Both the position numbers and the translations under genes were made by a program. The notes beneath the pieces are model-generated. The model worked only from the letters and a program-made list of their open reading frames with translations. It did no database searches and was not told the DNA's origin. Shown in pieces: positions 9,773-20,595 of a stretch of 36,905 nt of DNA. The DNA is from a virus (taxonomy: Duplodnaviria; Caudoviricetes), in the IMG/VR virus record IMGVR_UViG_3300046833_000025, positions 1 through 36,905 of that record; one strand, 5' to 3'. How positions within the stretch are numbered: the first letter of the stretch is position 1; the number at the start of each line of letters is the position of its first letter.

Positions 9773-10512
9773 TCTCTGTGCTGGGTGAGGCAGAGCGTGA
9801 GGTCCTGGTCCGGGATCTGCAGGCGTTGGTGCGTCTGGGGCCGAGATTGTCGGAGATGGTGGTGCCGTCGGTGGCGGCGTCGGGGTCGAATGCTGGCGTG
9901 TGCGCGTCGGTGCCGGGGCCGAGGTCTCCAGTGCGTGAGCATCCGTTCGCGGTGGAGCACGAGTGCTGGCTGCTGTTGAAGCAGATCGTGGGTGCGGTGT
10001 GCAGCGCTGGCGGACTGTCGGCGCCGCGACGTCGGCGTCCTGGCCCCGTGCCGGTGTCGGAGCTGGCCGGGTGGCTGCTGGACCATGTCGAGGATGTGGC
10101 CGGCCACGAGCAGGCGGCGGACGCGGTGGTGGTCATCGGGCAGCAGGCGAGGCGGGTAGCTGATTTGGTGGACCCGCCCCTGTCGGCGAAAGACCCCGCC
10201 CCCTCCGAGGTAGGCCCCCGGGGTGCTGAGGACCAGGCTCCCGGGCAGCAGAGCACCCCGGCCCCGGTGGACCCGCCGCCCCCGGGCCGGGGCCAGTGGG
10301 GCGGGCCGAGCGAGGTGTCGCAGGGTGCCGCGATCCTCGGGTGGCCGGTGTCCCGGAAGACCGTCAGGCTGTGGGCGCAGGCCGGGCACGTCCGGTCCAT
10401 CGAGATCGGGGAGCGGACGAGCTACAGCCTGGAGGACGTGGTGGCTCATGCCCGTGGGATGGAGCAGCGGGTGGCTGAGTCGCGGCATGTGGTTCGGGGT
10501 GAGGTCGTCTGA
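9769..10512 (+). CDS. DNA-binding protein with C-terminal HTH, possible late regulator
   Basis: GPSEVSQGAAILGWPVSRKTVRLWAQAGHV...YSLEDV MerR-like HTH; last gene before the packaging module. Confidence 0.6.
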   Translation: MISVLGEAEREVLVRDLQALVRLGPRLSEMVVPSVAASGSNAGVCASVPGPRSPVREHPFAVEHECWLLLKQIVGAVCSAGGLSAPRRRRPGPVPVSELAGWLLDHVEDVAGHEQAADAVVVIGQQARRVADLVDPPLSAKDPAPSEVGPRGAEDQAPGQQSTPAPVDPPPPGRGQWGGPSEVSQGAAILGWPVSRKTVRLWAQAGHVRSIEIGERTSYSLEDVVAHARGMEQRVAESRHVVRGEVV

Positions 10513-10530
10513 CCTGCGTGTCCCACCTCG

Positions 10531-10591
10531 TGTGGTAGGCTTCGCCTCAGGCGAGCATTGAACCTCGGACCCGATACCGGGTTCGGGGTTC
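10531..10591 (+). promoter_or_regulatory. Extended -10 promoter followed by a hairpin
   Basis: TGTGG-TAGGCT at 10531-10541; hairpin GAACCTCGGACCCG-ATAC-CGGGTTCGGGGTTC at 10560-10591. Confidence 0.5.
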
Positions 10592-10715
10592 TCGTCATTG
10601 TGAGGATGGCGAAGCGTCGCCGTTCGTGTGGAGCAGTCAGGTGGTCGGGGTCGTCACCCTCGATGTCGTCGACCACCGTTCTTCGTTGCACGAGCATGAC
10701 CTCATGGAGGTGTCG

Positions 10716-10979
10716 ATGGCCAGGACCTCGGATCGCAGGTATCGGGCACTTCGTGCGAGGGTGCTGGAGGGCAAGGGCATCGTCTGTGCCGGGTGCGGTG
10801 AACCGATCGACAAGTCGCTGCCGTTCCCGCATCCGATGTCGGCGACCGCCGACCACATCAACCCGGTCGGTCGCGGCGGTTCGAACCACGGGAAGCTCCA
10901 GCCGATGCACCTGCTCTGCAACCAGCGCAAGGGCAAGCGGGTCGGCCTCCCAGAGACCAAGCACTCCCGGCGGTGGTGA
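10716..10979 (+). CDS. HNH endonuclease, terminase-associated type
   Basis: GGAGG RBS before ATG 10716; CAGCG...ATADHINP..RGG...LQPMHLLCNQRKG. Confidence 0.85.
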   Translation: MARTSDRRYRALRARVLEGKGIVCAGCGEPIDKSLPFPHPMSATADHINPVGRGGSNHGKLQPMHLLCNQRKGKRVGLPETKHSRRW

Positions 10980-11120
10980 CCGGCCGGCGCGGCGGGGATA
11001 AGCGATCACCAATGCTCGAGTTCCGGAACGATGAAAAACTCAGGGGGTGGGGGTTGCCCCCCTCGGCCCCAGGCGCGGTAGGACACGGCATTGAGCCCAA
11101 TATCCCCCCGCCGATCTGAA
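10980..11120. other. Candidate cos / packaging-site region
   Basis: Non-coding G-run/C-run segment (GGGGGTGGGGG...CCCCC...TATCCCCCCG) between HNH and terminase, where cos phages usually have their ends. Exact site not identifiable. Confidence 0.35.
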
Positions 11121-11250
11121 ACCCAGCTGGTCAGAATACCAGGTCGCCGGATTCCGGCCCCAGGCCCCGTCTCCCGCCCGTTCTCGCCCCAGACCCTGCT
11201 CGAAGTCCCCCGCAGAACCTGCCGATTCATACTCTGACCTGCATAAACAT

Positions 11251-11280
11251 GTGACAAGCCGCAGGTCGGCGGGGTAGAAT
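11251..11280 (+). promoter_or_regulatory. SigA-type promoter giving a leaderless transcript
   Basis: GTGACA 11251-11256, 18 nt, TAGAAT 11275-11280; ATG 7 nt later with no RBS. Inverted repeat CTGACCTGC/GCAGGTCGG flanks the -35. Confidence 0.6.
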
Positions 11281-11287
11281 CGACCCC

Positions 11288-11821
11288 ATGAAGACATGCG
11301 AGAGCTGCGGTTGCGACCTGGTCAAGCCCAGGCGCGGACCAACGCCGCGCACCTGCGGCCAGCGCTGCCGCAAGCGCCTGTCCCGATCCCGTGCTCTCAC
11401 CGGCCCCTACCCCGAGGCCATGCGCCGCAAGACCCAGTGGACCTGCGCCGCCGGCAAGCGCCCAGTTCGAACCGACGGTGCCCCGGCGTCCTCGACGAAC
11501 CCGAGCACCTGGTCCAGCTTCACCGCAGTCCGAGACCGTCCACACGGCTTCATGTGCGGCGCCGGCATCGGCTGCATCGACCTCGACCACTGCCTCGACG
11601 ACCACGGGCGCCCCAACGCGCACACGGCCCGCATCCTCGCACTGAACCCCGACGCCTTCGTCGAGATCAGCGTCTCCGGAACCGGCCTGCACATCTTCGG
11701 CCTCCGCGACCGCGCACCGGGCATCCGCCGACCCGGCCTGGAGGTCTACTCCGCCGGACGGTTCATCCGCACCACCGGCAACGTCTTCCGCAACGGAGGG
11801 CTTCACCCACTGAACTTCTGA
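11288..11821 (+). CDS. Small AEP primase-polymerase-like protein with N-terminal Zn finger
   Basis: CESCG...TCGQRCR; ASSTNPSTWSSF; CIDLDHC; EISVSGTGLHIF; LEVYSAGRF..TGN. These are motifs of phage prim-pol domains. Confidence 0.75.
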   Translation: MKTCESCGCDLVKPRRGPTPRTCGQRCRKRLSRSRALTGPYPEAMRRKTQWTCAAGKRPVRTDGAPASSTNPSTWSSFTAVRDRPHGFMCGAGIGCIDLDHCLDDHGRPNAHTARILALNPDAFVEISVSGTGLHIFGLRDRAPGIRRPGLEVYSAGRFIRTTGNVFRNGGLHPLNF

Positions 11822-11850
11822 CCGGGCATCGAGCCGGGGGAGGGGACACC

Positions 11851-12129
11851 ATGGCCGCCGGATCGAACCGGCCGGTCCGCTCGGCGCTGCGCGCTGCCCG
11901 GTCTGGCGACACCCGAGAGATGCTCACCGCCCTGCGGGACCGACTCGCCGCCGACATCGACGCCGCAGCGATCGACGGCGACCTCCGACTGCCCGCGTTC
12001 ATCTCCACGAAGCTGATCGACGTCAACGACCGCCTCGCGGCCCTGGACGCCGCTACCACCACCACGAAGAAGGAGGGATCGGCCCTTGACGAGCTCGCTG
12101 CACGCCGCAACCGGACGGCAGGAACCTAG
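11851..12129 (+). CDS. terS: Terminase small subunit
   Basis: GGAGG RBS before ATG 11851; LTALRDRLAADID...SALDELAARR pattern; overlaps the start of terL. Confidence 0.7.
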   Translation: MAAGSNRPVRSALRAARSGDTREMLTALRDRLAADIDAAAIDGDLRLPAFISTKLIDVNDRLAALDAATTTTKKEGSALDELAARRNRTAGT

Positions 12130-13546
12130 CTTCCGCGCCGACCCGCCCACCGTCGCCTCCACCCAGGACGCAGAGGACGCCACATTCCTCTCCGCCGCCT
12201 ACGGACTGACCCTCGACCCCTTCCAGGAGCGCATCCTCGACGCCTGGCTCGCCCGCCGCACAGATGACCGCCTCGCCGCCCCGCGCGCCGGGCTGGCCAT
12301 CCCCCGCCAGAACGGCAAGAACGGTGCCCTGGAGGCCTACGAGCTGTTCGCGACGGTGGTCCTGGGGCGCAAGGTCCTCCACACCGCCCATGAGGTCAAG
12401 ACCGGCCGCAAGGCCTTCGTCCGCCTGTGCCGGTTCTTCGAGCGCAATGATGAGCTCCGCGACCGGGTCGAGTCGATCCGCAAGACCAACGGCCAGGAGT
12501 CCATCGTGCTGACCAATGGCGGGTCCGTGGAGTTCATCGCCCGCTCGAAGTCTTCCGGGCGTGGCTTCACCGTCGACACGATCGTCCTCGACGAGGCCCA
12601 GGAACTGTCTGTCGAGGCCATGGAAGCCCTGCTGCCGACGATGTCCTCGGCGCCGTCCGGCGACTCGCAGGTGATCATGCTCGGCACCCCGCCGGCGCCG
12701 GGCAACGACGGCGAGATGTTCACCCGGTGGCACGACGCCGCCCACGACGCCGCGGACCCCGGCCTGTCATGGCTGGAGTGGTCCGCTGACCGCCCAGAGG
12801 GCGGCTCAGTGGACCTCGACGACCAGGAGAACTGGGAGCGCGCCAACCCCGCCCTCGGCGGCCGTATGAGCCTGGACGTGGTCTCCGGCGAGCGAGCCAC
12901 GTTCCCGGACCAGTCCTTCGCCCGCGAGCGACTGGGCATGTGGGCCACCGAGGAGTCCGAGCGTGTCCTCCCGCTGGCACAGTGGGAGGCATGCTCTAAC
13001 CCGAACCTCGTCGACGACGGCGGGGAAGTGGCCCTGGCCATCGACGTCAACCCGGCCCGCGACTGCGCGTCCATCGCCGCCGCCGGGGCCACCGTCGACG
13101 GGACCCCCTTCGTCGACGTCATCGAGACCCGCCGCGGCACCCCGGACTGGCTCCTGGAGCGCGTCGCCTCGATCTGTTCCCGCCAGCCCGTCCGCGCCGT
13201 CCTCATCGACGGCAAGGGCCCCGCCGCATCACTGATCGACCCGCTCAAGCGCCGCAAGGTCAAAGTCTCGGTCACAGGCGCCGGCAACATGGCCGCCGCC
13301 GTCGCCGAGTTCTACGACGCCGTCATGGCCGAGCGCGTCTGGCACCTCGACCAGCCGGGCCTGAACCTCGCCGCCTCCGTGGCTCGCAAGCGCCGCCTCG
13401 GCGACGCCTGGGCCTGGAACCGCAAGGACACCGACTCCGACATCACCCCGCTCGTCGCCGTGACCCTGGCCCTGTTCGGTCACGCCTACACCGGCGTCGA
13501 GCGCCCCCGTCCCCGCAAGTCCTCCGGAAAGGTGGTGGTCTGGTGA
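12086..13546 (+). CDS. terL: Terminase large subunit
   Basis: IPRQNGKN Walker A, GRGFTVDTIVLDEAQ Walker B, GTPP, ANPALG, AIDV nuclease Asp, DITPLVAVTLA. Confidence 0.95.
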   Translation: MTSSLHAATGRQEPSFRADPPTVASTQDAEDATFLSAAYGLTLDPFQERILDAWLARRTDDRLAAPRAGLAIPRQNGKNGALEAYELFATVVLGRKVLHTAHEVKTGRKAFVRLCRFFERNDELRDRVESIRKTNGQESIVLTNGGSVEFIARSKSSGRGFTVDTIVLDEAQELSVEAMEALLPTMSSAPSGDSQVIMLGTPPAPGNDGEMFTRWHDAAHDAADPGLSWLEWSADRPEGGSVDLDDQENWERANPALGGRMSLDVVSGERATFPDQSFARERLGMWATEESERVLPLAQWEACSNPNLVDDGGEVALAIDVNPARDCASIAAAGATVDGTPFVDVIETRRGTPDWLLERVASICSRQPVRAVLIDGKGPAASLIDPLKRRKVKVSVTGAGNMAAAVAEFYDAVMAERVWHLDQPGLNLAASVARKRRLGDAWAWNRKDTDSDITPLVAVTLALFGHAYTGVERPRPRKSSGKVVVW

Positions 13547-14943
13547 ACCTCGACAAACTCACCGACGATGAGAAGCCCCTCGTCAAGCACATGATCGCCA
13601 AGATCAGCGACCACGCCAAGGCGAACAAGACCCACGAGGACTACTACGACGGAAGCTTCCGGCCAGGGTTTCTCGGCATCGGCCTTCCGAAGAACGCTGA
13701 GAAGCTCGAGATGGTCACCGGCTGGCCGGCCACCGCCGTCGACGTCCTCGAGGAACGGCTCGACATCACCGGCTTCGGCGACGACGAGACCCTCACCGAC
13801 ATCTTCACCGCCAACTCCCTCGACACCGAGGCCTCACAAGTCCACCTCGACGCCCTGATCTACGGCATGTCCTTCGCCTCCGTCACCGCCGGCGGACCCG
13901 GCGAACCCGAGGTGCTCATCCGCGGACACGACGCGAAGTCCACCACCGGGGTCTTCAACCCCCGCACCAAGCGCCTGGACGCCGCCCTGTCCCGCGAAAC
14001 CAACGACGACGGCGACGTCACCGACATCACCCTGTGGACCCCCGCAGAGATCGTCACCGCCCACCGAGAGAAAGCCAACGACCCCTGGAACGTCATCGAC
14101 CGCACCCCCCACGGACTCGGCCGAGTCCCCATGGTCGCCTTCATCAACCGCCCTCGCGCCGGTGACCGCGCCGGGCGCTCGGAGATATCAAAGGCTGTGA
14201 GGCGGTACACGGACTCCGCGGTGAGGTCCCTGACGTCGATGGACGTCAACCGCGAGTTCTTCTCCGCGCCTCAGCGCTACCTCATCGGCGCTGACGACGA
14301 GCAGTTCGTCGGTGCGGACGGAAAGCGGACGTCCTCCTGGCAGATCGTCACGGGCCGTCTCTGGTCCGTGCCGACCCCGGAGGAGGGCGAGCAGCCGAAG
14401 CTCGGCCAGTTCGATCCCATGAGCCCCGGGCCGTACCTCGACCAGGTCCGGGGGCTCGCTCAGCTCCTCGCCGCAGAGGCCGCGATCCCTGCGTCCTACC
14501 TTGGCTTTACCACGGAGAATCCATCCTCGGCGGACGCCATCCGCCAGATGGAGGCTCGCCTCGTCAAGCGTGCCGAGAGGCGACAGGTACAGTTCGGCCA
14601 CTCCTGGTCCGAGATCGGGCGCCTGGCGCTCGCCTCGGCGACGGGGGAGTCCGCAGACGCCGTCGACCGCCCGGCCGTGCAGTGGGCGGAAGCCTCCACC
14701 CCGACCTTCGCCGCGACGGTCGACGGGCTGAGCAAGCTCGTTCAGAACGAGATGGTCCCGAAGAACTCCGCGTGGGTCTGGGACCAGCTCGGCCTGCCCC
14801 CGGAGACACAGCGTCAGCTCAAGGCAGAGCTCGCACAGCAGCGCATGAGTGAGCTGTCCGCGACCGGCCAGGGCGTCACTTCACAGGCAGTGGAGCTCGC
14901 CCGGATGAACCGACAGTCCGGATCCAGCGACAGTGCCGAGTAA
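13543..14943 (+). CDS. Portal protein (SPP1 gp6-like)
   Basis: DYYDG, GWPATAVDVLEERL, HGLGRVPMV, GRSEI, EFFSAPQRY, NPSSADAIR; follows terL. Confidence 0.92.
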   Translation: MNLDKLTDDEKPLVKHMIAKISDHAKANKTHEDYYDGSFRPGFLGIGLPKNAEKLEMVTGWPATAVDVLEERLDITGFGDDETLTDIFTANSLDTEASQVHLDALIYGMSFASVTAGGPGEPEVLIRGHDAKSTTGVFNPRTKRLDAALSRETNDDGDVTDITLWTPAEIVTAHREKANDPWNVIDRTPHGLGRVPMVAFINRPRAGDRAGRSEISKAVRRYTDSAVRSLTSMDVNREFFSAPQRYLIGADDEQFVGADGKRTSSWQIVTGRLWSVPTPEEGEQPKLGQFDPMSPGPYLDQVRGLAQLLAAEAAIPASYLGFTTENPSSADAIRQMEARLVKRAERRQVQFGHSWSEIGRLALASATGESADAVDRPAVQWAEASTPTFAATVDGLSKLVQNEMVPKNSAWVWDQLGLPPETQRQLKAELAQQRMSELSATGQGVTSQAVELARMNRQSGSSDSAE

Positions 14944-14958
14944 GGGAGGTGATGCTCA

Positions 14959-16203
14959 GTGCGAGATCTCGTGGCGGAAAAGCAGTATACGGAAGCTCTC
15001 GACGGCCTGCGACTGCTCGCACAGCGTGATCTGCTGTCCTGGTGGAAGCAGACCGAGCACCTCGCCTGGGCAGACCAGTTGAAGCTCATGGAGGAGCCCT
15101 TCGCCGAAATCGTCCGCACCTACGGTGAGCAGGCGGCGTACTCAGCGGCCGACTACCTGTTCCTTCAGCGCAGCCTCTCGGACTCGCTGAGGGGCCTGGA
15201 GTACCCGGAGACGGCGGACCCGGTCGCCTTCGAGCAGGCACGGTCCTCCTACCGCTGGGCGATGAACACCACGAAGACCGCGGCTGCCGAGGACGGGACG
15301 ATCATCGCGGACCGGGTTGCGGCGCTGAACAAGCTGGCGGGAATCACCAACCGGCTCGTCGTAAGCCCCGCACGCAACACCGTCGAAAACGCCGTGGCGA
15401 AGGCCGGCACCCGCTACGCGAGAGTGCCCGAACCGGCTGCCTGCTCGTTCTGCCTCATGCTCGGTTCCAGAGGAGCTGTCTACAGCAAGAAGACAGTGCT
15501 CAAGGACTCCGGCATGGGGAAGTACCACGACAACTGCAGATGCCTCGGAATCGAGTGCGAAGGAGATCACGACCTCCCGAAGATCAACCAGGAGCTGCAG
15601 CAACTCTGGAAGGACACCGCTGACGACTACGGGGACACCCCGACGATCGAAATCTTCGGGGAGGCACTGCACCGGCAGCGTGACGGAACGACCCCACCGT
15701 GGATCCCCATCGACGCCAGGCGCATCAACCAGGCACCGGGCAAGGACCGCGGCCCACTCGGCAGCGTGCTCTCCGTGGACGAGATCGAGCAGAAAAGGCT
15801 CTACGGAACACCGTCAACCCTGCCGGACACTCCCCGCAACGCCAAGGACCAGAAAGTCTGGGACCAGGAGCAGAAAGCCATCGACTGGCTCTACGCAGCC
15901 GGCGCCCGCGACATCCGACGGGTCGGCCTCGGCAGTGAAATCGGAGAGCCGATCAAGACCCCCGACATCGTGATCGACGGACAACACCCCACCGACATCA
16001 AGACGGTCGGGGTCCAGCGGATGAACGACCAGTCACGAAAGGGCGCGAAGCAGTCCCGACAGCTCGTCTTCGACGTCCGCGGAGACCCGGCGTCAGCAGC
16101 AGAGATCGACAGCGCCATCCGCCGGACAGTCAGAAACGAAGGCGACCGGCTGGACCGTATACTGGTGATCACTGACCAGCAGCCATACATCTGGGAGAGG
16201 TGA
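14959..16203 (+). CDS. Minor head / MuF-like protein with C-terminal PD-(D/E)XK (CdiA-type) nuclease domain
   Basis: Position between portal and scaffold; RYARVPEPAACSFCLMLGSRGAVY...YHDNCRC. C-terminal E...KTPDIVIDG..TDIKT...KGAKQ..LVFD. Confidence 0.8.
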   Translation: MRDLVAEKQYTEALDGLRLLAQRDLLSWWKQTEHLAWADQLKLMEEPFAEIVRTYGEQAAYSAADYLFLQRSLSDSLRGLEYPETADPVAFEQARSSYRWAMNTTKTAAAEDGTIIADRVAALNKLAGITNRLVVSPARNTVENAVAKAGTRYARVPEPAACSFCLMLGSRGAVYSKKTVLKDSGMGKYHDNCRCLGIECEGDHDLPKINQELQQLWKDTADDYGDTPTIEIFGEALHRQRDGTTPPWIPIDARRINQAPGKDRGPLGSVLSVDEIEQKRLYGTPSTLPDTPRNAKDQKVWDQEQKAIDWLYAAGARDIRRVGLGSEIGEPIKTPDIVIDGQHPTDIKTVGVQRMNDQSRKGAKQSRQLVFDVRGDPASAAEIDSAIRRTVRNEGDRLDRILVITDQQPYIWER

Positions 16204-16206
16204 ACA

Positions 16207-16557
16207 ATGTCAGTCACACCGAGTATCGAGATCATCGAAGGACCGCGGACCGCAGCAGAAGCACGAGCCATGCTGGACCGCCTCGTCCCGACCGCCGACC
16301 AGGGCTGGTACCTCATCGCCGGCAGTCCGGCGGCCGTCTACGACGAGGACGAGGATGCCGTACTGAGTATCGAGATCAACACCCTCGAAGACACTGTCAC
16401 CGCCCAGTTCCAGGACCTGTTCGACAACCTCTGTGAGGCGACCGACTGGCACATCCGTCTCGACTGGGACGGGCCCGACGAGTGGCCCGACTTCCCCTAC
16501 ACGTCGAAGGACAGATCCCCAGGACAGCAGGCCCAGGACCTCTGGCCCGCAGCCTGA
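16207..16557 (+). CDS. Acidic small protein, putative immunity protein
   Basis: GGAGAGG RBS, starts 3 nt after the toxin-bearing gene, 116 aa, very D/E-rich; not a core head gene. Confidence 0.6.
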   Translation: MSVTPSIEIIEGPRTAAEARAMLDRLVPTADQGWYLIAGSPAAVYDEDEDAVLSIEINTLEDTVTAQFQDLFDNLCEATDWHIRLDWDGPDEWPDFPYTSKDRSPGQQAQDLWPAA

Positions 16558-16573
16558 TCAACACCAACATCTC

Positions 16574-16607
16574 ACACCCGGCCCGCCGCCCACGGCGCGC
16601 CGGGTGT
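16574..16607 (+). terminator. GC-rich hairpin (terminator or processing site)
   Basis: ACACCCGGC/GCCGGGTGT outer stem with CGCCG/CGGCG inner stem; no clear U-tract. Confidence 0.5.
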
Positions 16608-16617
16608 CGTCATTCAC

Positions 16618-16718
16618 GGAGGGGCATCCGGCGCAGGTCGCCGGGCCGGGATAGCGTCCCGGCGCACAGGCTCGGGGAGAACGCCTGTGTGAGGTTCGAG
16701 TCCTCGCCCGCTCCACCA
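16618..16718 (+). tRNA. Non-canonical tRNA-Sec-like (8/4-type) RNA, anticodon AGC, encoded CCA
   Basis: Hand fold: GGAGGGGC-AT-CCGGCG/CAGGT/CGCCGG-GCCGGG/ATAGCGT/CCCGGC-GCACAGGC/11 nt/GCCTGTGT-GAGG/TTCGAGT/CCTC-GCCCGCTCC-A-CCA. Confidence 0.8.
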
Positions 16719-16750
16719 ACCCCGCGCCCTGGAGGTGTCGGGGTCTTGTT
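16719..16750 (+). terminator. Hairpin immediately after the tRNA-like gene
   Basis: ACCCCG...CGGGGT stem followed by CTTGTTGT. Confidence 0.5.
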
Positions 16751-16784
16751 GTATCCACCCCGTTGTTCCCCTGGAGGAGAACTC

Positions 16785-17354
16785 ATGTCCACCATCACTG
16801 GTGCCACCGGCCAGGAGCCGGCACCGACCACAGGGCCCGACACCGGGTCCGACTCCACCGACAAGGCCACCACCCCGGCCCCCAGCGCCGGCGCCAAGCC
16901 CGGCACTGAGGACCAGGGCGAGGCGGACGACGGTGACCTGTCGCCTGATGACCTTCGCGCAGCACTGACCAAAGCGCGCAAGGAGGCCGCCCGCTACCGC
17001 ACGGAGCGCAATGAGCTGCGTCCGCTGGCGGAGAAGGCACGGCAGGTCGAGGAGGCCAACAAGACCGAGCTGGAGAAGGCACAGGAGAAGCTCGCCGCCC
17101 TGGAGGCGGAAGCGACCGAGGCCAAGCAGTCAGCTCTGCGCTCCCGTGTGGCGTCCGCCAAGGGCGTCCCCGAGTCCCTGCTGTCCGGCACGACCGAGGA
17201 GGAGCTCACGGCTGCGGCCGACGCTCTGCTCGAGTTCGCCGGCACCGCCAAGGAGCAGAGCAAGTCCAAGGGCGCCCCGTACGTCCCGTCTGTCGGACGC
17301 AGTTCCGGCGGGGACGACCGAGACTCCATGGCCCGCCAGATCCTCGGACTCTGA
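16785..17354 (+). CDS. Capsid scaffolding protein
   Basis: GGAGGAG RBS before ATG 16785; LTKARKEAARYR, EEANKTELEKAQE, GVPESLLSGTTEEELTAAADAL; precedes the capsid gene. Confidence 0.88.
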   Translation: MSTITGATGQEPAPTTGPDTGSDSTDKATTPAPSAGAKPGTEDQGEADDGDLSPDDLRAALTKARKEAARYRTERNELRPLAEKARQVEEANKTELEKAQEKLAALEAEATEAKQSALRSRVASAKGVPESLLSGTTEEELTAAADALLEFAGTAKEQSKSKGAPYVPSVGRSSGGDDRDSMARQILGL

Positions 17355-17406
17355 CACTGGATCCAGCCCGACCCTCAACAACCATCAACCCTGAAAGGAG
17401 CCAGAC

Positions 17407-18372
17407 ATGGCCACCTATACCCAGGAGACTCTCACCGGAGGCAGCGGCGGTTCCGCCCTCCTGCCCCGGTCCGTCTCCGACGAAATCTGGAAGTCCGCCC
17501 TCGCCACCTCGGTCGTCCCGTCGCTGGCGAAGGCCCACCCGATGATCATCGGCGAGAACATCATCCCGGTGCTCACCAAGCGCCCGTCCGCCTCCATCGT
17601 CGGCGAGCTTGGCAACAAGCCGGACTCCGAGCTGGAGGTCGGCGCGAAGTCCATCAAGCCGATCAAGGCCGTCGTCGGCCTCGAGTTCTCCATGGAGACC
17701 ATCGAGACCAACCCGGCGAACATCCTCGACCTCATGAGCGATGAGATGTCCCAGGCGCTGTCCCGCCAGATCGACCTGGCGGTACTCCACGGACGCCAGG
17801 CGGTCAATGGCGCAGCCCTCACCGGCGTGACCGAGTGGATCACCCAGACCGCTAACTCCGTCGAGCTCGTCGCCGGTTCCAACGGCCGCCCGGACCCCGC
17901 ACTGGCGGACTCCGCGCTGTGGGAAGGCTACAACTCCGTCGTCGGTGGTGCGACCCCGCACAACTTCACCGGCTTCGGCATGGACCCCCGCTTCGTCGCG
18001 TTGCTGGCCAACGCCCGCGACAAGGAGGGGCGCCGCCTTAACCCGGAGATCCCGATGGGCGGCGGCATCACCTCTTACGCCGGCCAGCCGGTCGCCGCGT
18101 CCCGAGCGATCTCCGGACAGATGGACGGCTCCGCCGACACCGGCATCCGCGCGATCGGCGGTGACTGGGACGCGCTGCGCTTCGGCCACGCCCTGGACAT
18201 CAGCCTCAAGCGCATCGAGTACGGCGACCCGTTCGGCAACGGTGACCTCCAGCGCCGCAACGCCGTCGCCTTCCTCACCGAGGTCATCTTCGGCTGGGCG
18301 ATCCTCGACAAGGACGCCTTCGTCACCTACACCGAGGCGGACGATGACGCGGGGGAAACCCCGGCCCCGTGA
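17407..18372 (+). CDS. Major capsid protein (HK97 fold)
   Basis: AAAGGAG RBS; LLPRSVSDEIW, IKPIKAVV, IDLAVLHG, IGGDW, DLQRRNAVAFLTEVIFGWAILDKDAF. Confidence 0.95.
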   Translation: MATYTQETLTGGSGGSALLPRSVSDEIWKSALATSVVPSLAKAHPMIIGENIIPVLTKRPSASIVGELGNKPDSELEVGAKSIKPIKAVVGLEFSMETIETNPANILDLMSDEMSQALSRQIDLAVLHGRQAVNGAALTGVTEWITQTANSVELVAGSNGRPDPALADSALWEGYNSVVGGATPHNFTGFGMDPRFVALLANARDKEGRRLNPEIPMGGGITSYAGQPVAASRAISGQMDGSADTGIRAIGGDWDALRFGHALDISLKRIEYGDPFGNGDLQRRNAVAFLTEVIFGWAILDKDAFVTYTEADDDAGETPAP

Positions 18373-18404
18373 CCGGGCTGAGGCCCCGAGCGGGCCTCCA
18401 CCCG
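18350..18404 (+). repeat. 55-bp direct repeat copy 1 with GGGGGAAA slippery site
   Basis: Identical to 20573-20627. The -1 frame reads GNPGPVTGLRPRAGLHPAKGLHPRKAKK, stop 18438-18440. Confidence 0.9.
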
Positions 18405-18450
18405 GCGAAGGGGCTGCACCCGCGCAAGGCCAAGAAGTAGGAGGTCGAGC

Positions 18451-18927
18451 ATGACCGCTGTGACCATCACGGTCGATGACCTCCGCGTATTCGACCCGGA
18501 CATCGACGAGGCGAAGGCAGAGATCCTGATCCGCGACGGGCTGGCCCTGGCGGCCAGGGTTGCGCCCTGCATCACCGACGACGGCTTCCAGTTCGTCGGT
18601 GCCGCAGAGGCGATCATCAGGGCAGCAGTGCTGCGCTGGGCGGAGTCAGGGGGAGGGTCAGTCACCCAGGAGCAGGTCACCGCCGGGCCGTTCTCGTTGA
18701 ACAACACGTTCAGCCCGACAGCTCGGCGCTCCCTGTTCTATCCCTCGGAGATCACCGAATTGCAGAAGCTCTGCAAGGCCAACGCCGGCGGCGCCTTCTC
18801 GATCGACACCGCGTTCATCCCGCGGTCGGTCGAGCACCGTCCGGAATGCTCCGTGCGGATGTCCTCACTCGTCGACGGACAGTCCGTCCGCTGCACCTGT
18901 GGTGCTGACGTCGGGGGTTCCTGGTGA
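18451..18927 (+). CDS. Head-to-tail adaptor
   Basis: AARVAPCI, IIRAAVLRW, TAGPFS, LFYPSEITELQKLC, GAFSIDT; follows the capsid gene. Confidence 0.8.
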   Translation: MTAVTITVDDLRVFDPDIDEAKAEILIRDGLALAARVAPCITDDGFQFVGAAEAIIRAAVLRWAESGGGSVTQEQVTAGPFSLNNTFSPTARRSLFYPSEITELQKLCKANAGGAFSIDTAFIPRSVEHRPECSVRMSSLVDGQSVRCTCGADVGGSW

Positions 18928-19274
18928 GCGTCTTCCCCGCCCGGTACAAGGTTCAGTTGAGCCGGTATGTCGAGACCGTCAACGACATGGGGGACCCGAC
19001 TGTGGGCCACCTCGAGCCAGTGGAGGTTCTCGTCGTCGGCTGGGCGGTCACCGGCGGGGTGGAGCGGGGCGAGGACGGGCATATCAACCAGGTCTCCTGG
19101 GATGTGTCCCTCTACGCCCCGGCCTCACTGCAGGTTGACGCCCAGGACCAGTTCATCGTCCCCGGCCTCGGCATGTTCGAGGTCGCCGGGTCACCGGCGA
19201 ACTGGGACAACGGCCCCTGGTGGAGTCCTGGAGTCTCCGAGATCCACCTGAGGAGGGTCGATGGGCAGAACTAA
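18924..19274 (+). CDS. Head-to-tail stopper
   Basis: DMGDP, FEVAGSP.NWDNGPW, LRRVDG; synteny. Confidence 0.75.
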   Translation: MSVFPARYKVQLSRYVETVNDMGDPTVGHLEPVEVLVVGWAVTGGVERGEDGHINQVSWDVSLYAPASLQVDAQDQFIVPGLGMFEVAGSPANWDNGPWWSPGVSEIHLRRVDGQN

Positions 19275-19509
19275 GCTCGTCTGGAACCAGAAGGCGTTCA
19301 GGGAACTCCGTCTTGACCAGGGAGTCGCTGCCGATATTGAGCGGCGAACCAGGGCGATCAAGGAGGCTGCGGGGGAGGGGTTCGAGATGGGTTCCAGCCC
19401 GGGCACTAACCGCTACCGCGGCAATGTTGTCACCGCCACTCACCGGGCGATGAAGGACCAGGCGAAGAACAACACCTTGCAGCGCGCTCTCGACGCAGGC
19501 AGGGGTTGA
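19261..19509 (+). CDS. Neck / tail-completion protein
   Basis: LVWNQKAFRELR...DQAKNNTLQRALDAGR; synteny. Confidence 0.7.
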   Translation: MGRTKLVWNQKAFRELRLDQGVAADIERRTRAIKEAAGEGFEMGSSPGTNRYRGNVVTATHRAMKDQAKNNTLQRALDAGRG

Positions 19510-19928
19510 GCCCAGTGACCGCACCTGATCCGGTGCCGGGCCCGACCCCGGCCCTGCCGAACGCCGAGCTCGTCGCCAAGGCGCTCCTCTCCGACGCCCT
19601 CAGCATCCCCGTCTACCAGACACCGCCCCGCACCCCACCGGAGCGGTACATCCGGGTGGCCCGCGCCGGCGGTGTCATGCGAAACCGCGTCACCGACGCG
19701 GCGACCATGGTCATCTCCTGCTACGCCACCGATCCGGCGGACGCCGCCGATCTTGCCAACCAGGCCCGAGCGGCTCTCGTAGCCGGCCGCGGACACCGCG
19801 CAGCCGGTGTCCTCGTGCGCTGGTGGGTGGAGATGGGCGGCCCCGCCTACTACCCGGACCCGGATCGCAACGACCGGGTCCGCTACCAGTTCACCGGCGA
19901 GCTCCGCCTCGCCGCGCACGTGAACTGA
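19506..19928 (+). CDS. Tail terminator protein
   Basis: PERYIRVARAGG, GGPAYYPDPD..RVRYQFT; precedes the tail tube gene. Confidence 0.75.
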   Translation: MSPVTAPDPVPGPTPALPNAELVAKALLSDALSIPVYQTPPRTPPERYIRVARAGGVMRNRVTDAATMVISCYATDPADAADLANQARAALVAGRGHRAAGVLVRWWVEMGGPAYYPDPDRNDRVRYQFTGELRLAAHVN

Positions 19929-19962
19929 CCACACATTCCGATCCCACGAAAGGGGAATCATC

Positions 19963-20595
19963 ATGGCACGTGGCACTACCGCCAACGTCCTCGCCGGTAT
20001 CCCGGACTCCGTCGGAGGCCTCTGGGTCTACCCGACGGGCCTGCTCACCGCCGACGCCCTCCCGACCGCCGACACTGACCTGGCCACTGCTGGCCTGGTC
20101 TCCGTCGGCTTCATCGGTGAGGACGGCGTCACCGAGACCGCCGAGCGCGACACCGAGAAGAAGAAGGCCTGGGGCGGTGACACGATCCGCGTCCTCCAGA
20201 ACGAGTACAACCAGACCTTCAGCTTCGTCCTCGCCGAGGCAGCGAACGCCGAGGTCCTCAAGCTGGTCTACGGCCCGGACAACGTCACCGTCGCCGCGGA
20301 CGGCTCGATCACCGTCATCCAGAACTCCAAGACCCTGCCGCACCGCACCTGGGTCATGGAGATCCTCGACGATGACGGCAAGAAGGTCCGCAAGGTCATC
20401 CCGGACGGCCAGATCTCCGAGATCTCCGATATCACCTGGGTCCACTCCGACATCGTCCAGTACGAGGTCACCATGGAGACCTTCATCGACGCTGCCGGCA
20501 ACAACGTCTACACCCACATCACCCCGGTCGCCGCTGCTGGCGGCACCGGCGGTGGAGATGACGGTGATGACTCGGGGGAAACCCCGGCCCCGTGA
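19963..20595 (+). CDS. Major tail (tube) protein
   Basis: VGFIGEDGV, KAWGGDTIR, VYGPDNVT, VIPDGQISEISDITWVHSDIVQYEVT. Confidence 0.92.
   Translation: MARGTTANVLAGIPDSVGGLWVYPTGLLTADALPTADTDLATAGLVSVGFIGEDGVTETAERDTEKKKAWGGDTIRVLQNEYNQTFSFVLAEAANAEVLKLVYGPDNVTVAADGSITVIQNSKTLPHRTWVMEILDDDGKKVRKVIPDGQISEISDITWVHSDIVQYEVTMETFIDAAGNNVYTHITPVAAAGGTGGGDDGDDSGETPAP

Follow-up and report, generated by a model that had tools for sequence, protein, structure and literature searches.

A tRNA-like element next to a MuF-type toxin-immunity pair in a phage head operon: a likely host-enzyme cutting signal rather than a dedicated decoy

Do the genes lying between the portal and scaffold genes of a tailed phage form a three-part system, in which a nuclease toxin, its protein antidote and a tRNA mimic act together? 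The question is raised by a 36,905-nucleotide stretch of viral DNA (IMG/VR record IMGVR_UViG_3300046833_000025; the whole stretch is referred to as the window), where a minor head protein carrying a nuclease-like C-terminal tail is followed by a small acidic open reading frame (ORF) and a tRNA-shaped RNA gene. An earlier note on this DNA took the three parts as one system. The present analysis suggests, with a probability of about 0.6, that the locus combines a known MuF toxin-immunity pair with an independent tRNA-like RNA-processing signal placed ahead of the scaffold and capsid genes. The RNA of the window is likely a signal for cutting by host enzymes rather than a dedicated decoy.

The relation between RNA and toxin was elucidated by surveying the corresponding slot downstream of related head proteins of the VG15 type. 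VG15 loci (given L numbers) were drawn from viral contigs and from the 29 matching genomes among 321 of Corynebacterium. The 144 proteins formed 76 clusters at 85% identity, of which 42 were kept after leaving out 32 clusters below 95 bits (including L100), a partial copy of the window (L011) and a locus with short downstream DNA (L081). A script looked within ~1 kb downstream for T arms that an acceptor helix closes off, and such an element was present in 28 of the 42 clusters, as compared to 0/42 on the other strand, 3/42 upstream and 6/840 in Markov shuffles; the clusters are related, so that the counts are not fully independent, and L017 was scored 'none' by the script though a short ('mini') element is visible by eye. 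The element is present behind 6/11 heads with a CdiA_C tail (L141 being scored in this class though below the Pfam cut-off), 14/18 with other tails, 3/4 with broken tails and 5/9 with no tail, and the proportion in the CdiA_C clusters does not differ from that in the rest (6/11 vs 22/31, Fisher p=0.46). Full cloverleaves occur in 1/11 CdiA_C clusters, the window itself, and in 4/31 others (L015, L036, L137 and L148), all four having Ser anticodons and lying behind other or broken toxins. Five CdiA_C clusters (29 loci) have toxin and partner with a hairpin only and no element. The mini elements of L146 (EndoU) and L147 (CdiA_C) match at 49 of 56 bases, and those of L014 (CdiA_C) and L133 (EndoU) at 51 of 56. 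Since the element is present whatever the toxin, and is near-identical behind swapped toxins, it belongs to the slot and not to the toxin. The triad proposed in the earlier note, therefore, does not hold as a conserved unit; for the element class, the survey shows what the note itself had named as speaking against it, an equal occurrence of the RNA in relatives without this toxin.

The features of the locus, in window coordinates, are as follows.

13543-14943, plus strand: portal gene, directly upstream of the head-protein fusion, which starts at 14959.
14959..16203, plus strand: VG15/MuF-like minor head protein of 414 amino acids (aa) with a C-terminal nuclease domain.
15802..16203, plus strand: CdiA_C-type PD-(D/E)XK domain, aa 282-414, as predicted from AlphaFold, Foldseek, VIA and conservation.
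16207..16557, plus strand: 116-aa acidic protein, likely the cognate immunity protein, from a family without a name.
16574..16607, plus strand: hairpin A, a GC-rich stem-loop whose end lies 10 nt upstream of the tRNA-like RNA (z=-5.3).
16618..16718, plus strand: tRNA-like RNA (fold z=-3.9; 37 bits with the tRNA-Sec model).
16719..16744, plus strand: hairpin B, terminator-like, beginning directly after the CCA (z=-1.2).
16785..17354, plus strand: head scaffolding protein (phrog_1793, E 1e-27), with its ribosome-binding site at 16773-16779.

The interval from portal to scaffold thus consists of the 414-aa ORF, the 116-aa acidic ORF and a 227-nt spacer that holds hairpin A, the cloverleaf and hairpin B, which is the arrangement described earlier.

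Most copies of the slot element are tRNA top halves of 40-60 nt, in which an acceptor helix, frequently bulged by one base, is combined with a T arm and with a small hairpin that to our reading resembles a D arm. RNase P and RNase Z read the top half of tRNA, i.e. the acceptor and the T arm. The loss of the anticodon arm, while the part read by these enzymes is kept, fits a processing signal, and the copy in the window would be an unusually complete, allo-tRNA-shaped member of a series running from bare minihelices to tRNA-Ser-like genes of the 8/4 type. The same series may also be explained by a terminator junction that collects tRNA genes, the full copies being passive cargo and the minis decaying relics without any action on the message. 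The element lengths do grade from full to bare, the L100 copy stops short at the T loop, loci lacking the element still have a hairpin, and a tRNA followed by a U-tract hairpin is an ordinary gene layout. This explanation is nevertheless considered unlikely, as the minis keep their acceptor and T-stem pairing through compensatory changes though the anticodon arm is lost. Among 17 aligned elements, the T stem is paired in 85/85 cells with 7 double-sided changes, and over 10 pairs 82% of the cells pair as against 32-49% in slid controls, counts that favour structure, the elements having been chosen by a T-loop and pairing rule. The spacing to the next hairpin is also tight, its CCC run starting 21-31 nt after the T-loop G in 27/28 elements, and L015 and L036 retain a mini behind the full copy.

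Individual loci show the range of forms in the slot. At L015:5167-5350 and L036:4163-4345, elements stand in tandem, with a full tRNA-Ser(CGA)-like gene and a hairpin ahead of the usual mini; the full gene appears to act as an insertable cassette, because L014 has the same mini without it. L148:574-662 (minus strand) lies in an apparent prophage remnant, where the VG15-EndoU gene is broken and the small ORF, hairpin A, an 8/4 tRNA-Ser-like gene and a hairpin B starting like that of the window are all kept. In L100 (4324-4385), a CdiA_C toxin of another subtype, whose partner ORF is unrelated, is followed by hairpin A and then by a tRNA-Ser-like gene truncated just past the T loop. Behind a toxin-less VG15 protein, L086:3745-3862 forms a tRNA-like fold of ~118 nt, in which the acceptor helix is long and two arms are extended. 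The minis at L146:611-680 and L147:448-517 (minus strand) have a canonical 7/5 top half ending in ACCA, with only one small hairpin between the arms, and are the cleanest RNase P-type substrates of the set.

The product of 14959-16203 matches VG15 (PF25310) at aa 8-207 with an E value of 1e-32, above the cut-off, and CdiA_C (PF18451) at aa 333-406 with an E value of 3e-8 and 34 bits against a cut-off of 26.6. The MuF profiles PF04233 and PF06152 have no match in the N-terminus of the fusion, where PF25310 matches instead; the tblastn matches of the protein are annotated as MuF-like minor capsid protein, and it falls into phrog_193 (head and packaging). The gene has the layout of MuF toxins, being directly after the portal gene and having a C-terminal extension of at least 100 aa whose toxin domain varies among relatives, the tails on the same VG15 head domain being CdiA_C, EndoU, ADP-ribosyltransferase, glutamine-deamidase, unnamed or none. 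The extra C-terminal domain with E...PD...DIK...KQ motifs that had been pointed out in the earlier note is present, though it is somewhat longer than claimed, spanning aa 282-414 by structural alignment. Its motifs are E304, P335-D336, D346-x-K348 and K364-Q365; E304, P335, D336, K348 and Q365 are invariant in 13/13 aligned homologues, position 346 is D or E in all, and E304, D336, D346 and K348 are the predicted catalytic residues.

The AlphaFold model of the nuclease tail (pLDDT 92) gave a sole Foldseek match at E<=1e-3, namely 4g6v_A, the CdiA-CT toxin of Burkholderia pseudomallei 1026b, with an E value of 2e-4 and 22% identity. VIA alignment to this chain yields Z 10.0 and an rmsd of 3.6 over 121 aligned residues, the next-best chain being at Z 6.1. 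A nuclease toxin fold, as had been suggested, is thus borne out by model and family profile alike. Sequence searches add little: the Protein Data Bank gave no significant match with the toxin domain or with its profile, word-index homologue searches returned only the protein itself, and ESM Atlas gave no match at or above 0.9, the CDI immunity component that is closest among its named clusters, at 0.79, being a lead only. An order-wide toxin search matched 2/401 genomes, neither with a head-protein fusion, and these were left out of the counts.

The 1026b toxin cuts tRNA-Ala at its acceptor stem, according to the accessible text of PMC9086364. The product of 14959-16203 is best read as a MuF-type head protein with a predicted tRNA-cutting nuclease. 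A nuclease of other specificity, acting on other tRNAs or on DNA, or a role in phage-phage exclusion, with the RNA unrelated to it, appears very improbable. The identity of the tail to 4G6V is 15-22% (Foldseek, VIA), DNase members share the fold (4g6u Z 5.3, 4zqu Z 4.8 in VIA), and PHROG names the N-terminal family head maturation protease, so that packaging is a presumption. However, the tRNase subfamily is indicated by the Pfam family as well as by the only clear match in structure. Two further loci bear toxin genes in another setting: tRNA-Leu genes at L141:1140-1214 and L143:1112-1196 stand just upstream of N-terminally shortened VG15-toxin genes, which may be toxin-immunity cassettes orphaned at the attachment sites of prophages.

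The acidic partner encoded by 16207-16557 has 24 D/E against 6 K/R residues in its 116 aa and belongs to no Pfam or PHROG family. Its own family, with 39 cluster representatives at E<=1e-3, is present in 11/11 CdiA_C clusters and in 0/31 other VG15 clusters; the profile was built from the CdiA_C partners, which makes the 11/11 circular and leaves the 0/31 negatives as the informative part. The structure model is a confident alpha/beta fold, and Foldseek with it gave no match at E<=1e-3, CdiI not being retrieved. Because the acidic family pairs strictly with the CdiA_C toxin type, the protein is likely the cognate immunity protein of the toxin, in agreement with the earlier note.

The RNA at 16618-16718 folds as a cloverleaf that none of 200 shuffles equals. 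It has an 8-bp acceptor with a bulged G (16710), a 4-bp T stem with an intact T loop, a 6-bp D stem with a 5-nt D loop, a 6-bp anticodon stem, an 8-bp variable arm, G1:C72, A73 and an encoded CCA; the anticodon AGC (16653-16655) lies in a 7-nt loop with U33 and G37. ARAGORN and the Rfam gathering thresholds miss it. The tRNA-Sec model (RF01852) gives 37 bits against a gathering threshold of 47, with the anticodon AGC and not UCA, and this match is not specific, because on Corynebacterium genomes true selC genes score 73-82 bits and the next tier, mostly ordinary-length tRNAs, 42-44. A recent origin from host selC was rejected, 50-54 of 87 aligned columns being alike in a poorly registered alignment. 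A model built from this one sequence, whose scores are weak, gives 26.1 bits to true selC and 23.8-25.4 to slot relatives.

Close relatives of the full RNA were not found in the phage collection. Pattern scans of viral contigs, one of which covered 30/64 parts, returned identical copies and one Ser-type copy only; 4 metagenome matches to the pattern were unrelated, and the one-sequence covariance model matched 0/151 Corynebacterium genomes at E<=1e-5, a result obtained without a positive control. The independent viral contigs with the cassette (L001-L012) all have it at 100% identity and are counted as one sequence. No non-identical relative of the RNA was found in these searches. As for the hairpins said to flank it, only the upstream one stands on its own. 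Hairpin A is significant, and a similar hairpin with a TCAT linker precedes the tRNA-like genes of L015, L126, L148, L140 and L100. Hairpin B alone is not significant, a terminator scan finding 4 as against 3.8 expected, and a hairpin is present in its slot also in inspected relatives without an element.

A number of observations weigh against the combination of a tRNase-immunity pair with a processing signal. With an identity of 15-22%, the tRNA substrate is not transferable, and other CdiA toxins with a PD-(D/E)XK fold are DNases as reported in the available text of PMC9086364. No integrase was found among the 30 window proteins scanned, and a temperate lifestyle is suggested by prophage relatives, which sit in contigs of Corynebacterium genomes. 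The scan found no element in 14/42 clusters, which makes it dispensable, and the GGG..TTT tract following 23/30 elements fits a plain tRNA-plus-terminator layout as well as it fits processing. In terms of expression, 24 RNA-labelled runs contain the stretch, and the four examined hold it as single flat-depth contigs, which may be DNA. The one-sequence model scores all three host tRNA-Ala at 17-20 bits as compared to 18-22 for Leu/Ser tRNAs, and only one of 29 slot elements, the window copy, ends in GCUCCA like host tRNA-Ala.

This end leads to a further alternative, in which the triad is limited to one lineage: there the RNA of the slot would have changed into a look-alike of tRNA-Ala, which binds the nuclease as an uncharged decoy on top of the protein immunity. 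The earlier note had drawn a link to Ala through the anticodon. The window RNA shares A73, the 3' strand GCUCC and an NGC anticodon with tRNA-Ala, and differs by its 8-bp variable arm. Its favoured register, 8/4 with the bulged G (-57.3 kcal/mol), has A-U as pair 3:70 with a probability of 0.998 in the precursor, a pair that would stop charging with Ala, whereas the three host tRNA-Ala (from one Corynebacterium genome) have G3·U70. A register slipped by three bases shows the exact top five Ala acceptor pairs at -50.1 kcal/mol; its share of the ensemble is 0.1% in the precursor and 64% if the 5' end is at 16621. The acceptor stem weighs more than the anticodon in this comparison, being the place where the reference toxin cuts tRNA-Ala.

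The decoy would account for the Ala-like 3' end, for an Ala-box anticodon and A73 where the full-length relatives have Ser anticodons and G73, and for the A3-U70 pair, since an uncharged state suits it; the nearest solved toxin also has the right target (PMC9086364, text seen in part). All the same, the full cloverleaf occurs in 0/10 other CdiA_C clusters and the Ala-like end in 0/5 of their minis, whereas the protein partner is present in all 11. The GGAG/CUCC end is common to host tRNA-Ser and tRNA-Sec, discriminator A is already found in most minis, where one-base 3' bulges also recur, tRNA-Ala has neither the long variable arm nor the 8/4 branch, and a single sequence is known. G-run slippage, the Ser-like GGAG/CUCC end and the bulges of the family explain the Ala likeness in part. 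As the end, discriminator A and bulges occur elsewhere, only the bulged G and the anticodon remain special, and these may be either coincidence or local adaptation. That a generic element was rebuilt in this lineage into a tRNA-Ala mimic, with Ala anticodon, Ala 3' end and a switchable G3·U70 register, serving as RNA antidote or resistant substitute against the tRNase encoded two genes upstream and giving a double immunity of protein and RNA, is regarded as doubtful, and so is the lineage-limited decoy itself.

An active allo-type tRNA is an equally doubtful possibility; it would be charged with Ser or Leu by way of its long arm and misread Ala codons or, trimmed by three bases, be charged with Ala and form a toxin-resistant substitute. 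The encoded CCA, U33, purine 37 and intact T loop are those of a working tRNA, and the trimming to 16621 mentioned above brings the register with G3·U70, an AlaRS determinant (PMC5389517, as far as its accessible text goes), to the majority of the ensemble. The same text describes 8/4 allo-tRNAs with non-cognate anticodons that function in E. coli and are frequently encoded close to toxin-antitoxin genes, and Streptomyces has a mistranslating tRNA with an AGC anticodon (PMC10404621, in the part available). In the precursor, however, the Ala register is 7 kcal/mol less stable and amounts to only ~0.1% of the ensemble; the bulged acceptor, the 5-nt D loop and A73 depart from most allo-tRNAs, which have G/U73; the anticodon arm is absent from most slot elements; and the phage shows no avoidance of GCU codons, which make up 7-11% of its Ala codons, similar to other NNU codons.

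If the toxin-immunity pair and the processing signal are taken as the working explanation, a few copies of the head-toxin fusion would be packaged and delivered on infection, as in the MuF model (PMC5576092, main text). The nuclease would then cut host tRNA, and the acidic protein would block it in lysogens and producer cells. Host RNase P would cut 5' of the element, at 16618, followed by 3' maturation; the toxin-immunity message would then be protected at its 3' end by hairpin A, and the next message, that of scaffold and capsid, would be ended or protected by hairpin B. The two blocks would thereby be uncoupled and could be expressed at different levels.

The genome in the window is siphovirus-like with 66.5% GC. 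The host genus is probably Corynebacterium, because the closest named matches of the capsid protein, at 72-78% identity, are in Corynebacterium genomes. The sole sigma-70-like promoter match in 10500-20000 is at 11251-11280 (10/12, with 0.7 expected by chance) and directly precedes the terminase small subunit ORF. The motif CCC(A/T)GGNGG occurs twice in the window, at 16727-16735 in hairpin B and at 16769-16777, where it overlaps the ribosome-binding site of the scaffold gene, and the doubling is also seen in several relatives (L014, L019, L021, L133); it could be a candidate site for protein binding or for translational autoregulation of the scaffold gene.

The protein pair is a known design. 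It would extend MuF toxins to a VG15-type corynebacterial clade and define an immunity family that has no name so far. Of wider bearing are the tRNA top-half elements, a family that most of these phages have at the boundary in front of the scaffold gene and that Rfam does not match in the window and the six relatives scanned. If host tRNA-maturation enzymes cut there, the phages would set by this means the ratio of low-copy head and toxin protein to high-copy capsid protein; should the Ala-like copy of the window also shield cells from the nuclease, this would be immunity by RNA against a polymorphic toxin, of a type that is new. In the mainly open-access literature searched, neither a phage processing signal of tRNA-like form nor a tRNA decoy directed at a polymorphic toxin was found, a negative that is weak evidence of absence.

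In comparison to known systems, the locus agrees with the MuF toxins of Jamet et al. 2017 (PMC5576092) in the gene after the portal, the swappable toxin tail on a head domain and the small downstream ORF, and the suggestion that it follows this established design is upheld. The toxin domains named in the accessible text of that paper include cd13442 (1026b-like tRNase) and EndoU, and an Apk2 MuF toxin has been reported as toxic and neutralised by downstream genes (PMC12226406, text available in part). The present locus differs by its VG15-type N-terminus and likely corynebacterial phage, the toxins of the paper being mostly from Firmicutes, by an immunity family without a Pfam name, and by the neighbouring RNA gene, which has no counterpart in the main text of PMC5576092 ('tRNA' occurs once, in another sense). 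With CdiA-CT/CdiI of 1026b it shares the PD-(D/E)XK fold with the conserved acidic and lysine residues, but the low identity, the failure of Foldseek to retrieve CdiI and the carrier, which is a head protein here and two-partner secretion there, set the two apart.

The RNA is alike in shape to the (8/4) allo-tRNAs of Mukai et al. 2017 (PMC5389517) and is not classed as a member. As judged from the available text, the 8/4 branch, the long D and anticodon stems, the long variable arm, the non-Ser anticodon and the nearby toxin genes are common to both, whereas most members have a D tetraloop and G73/U73, and the allo-tRNA genes of that paper are placed in Clostridia, Proteobacteria and Acidobacteria rather than in an actinobacterial phage. 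L137 and L148, which appear to be of the 8/4 type and have Ser anticodons with G73, are comparable to the phage (8/4) tRNA-Ser of the same paper and of a review (PMC7609411, in part). The tRNA-ProA/ProX of Streptomyces shares the rare AGC anticodon on a tRNA without Ala identity, but tRNA-ProX has C1:G72 (PMC10404621, accessible text), while the window RNA has G1:C72 and a long variable arm, and no synthetase is present among the 30 window proteins scanned. The t-elements of plant mitochondria (Forner et al. 2007, PMC1920247, in the text available) are tRNA-like folds at mRNA boundaries that have been proposed as RNase P/Z signals; the slot family resembles them in its conserved tRNA top-half fold at the boundary of a gene block, here in a phage head operon and as read from sequence alone.

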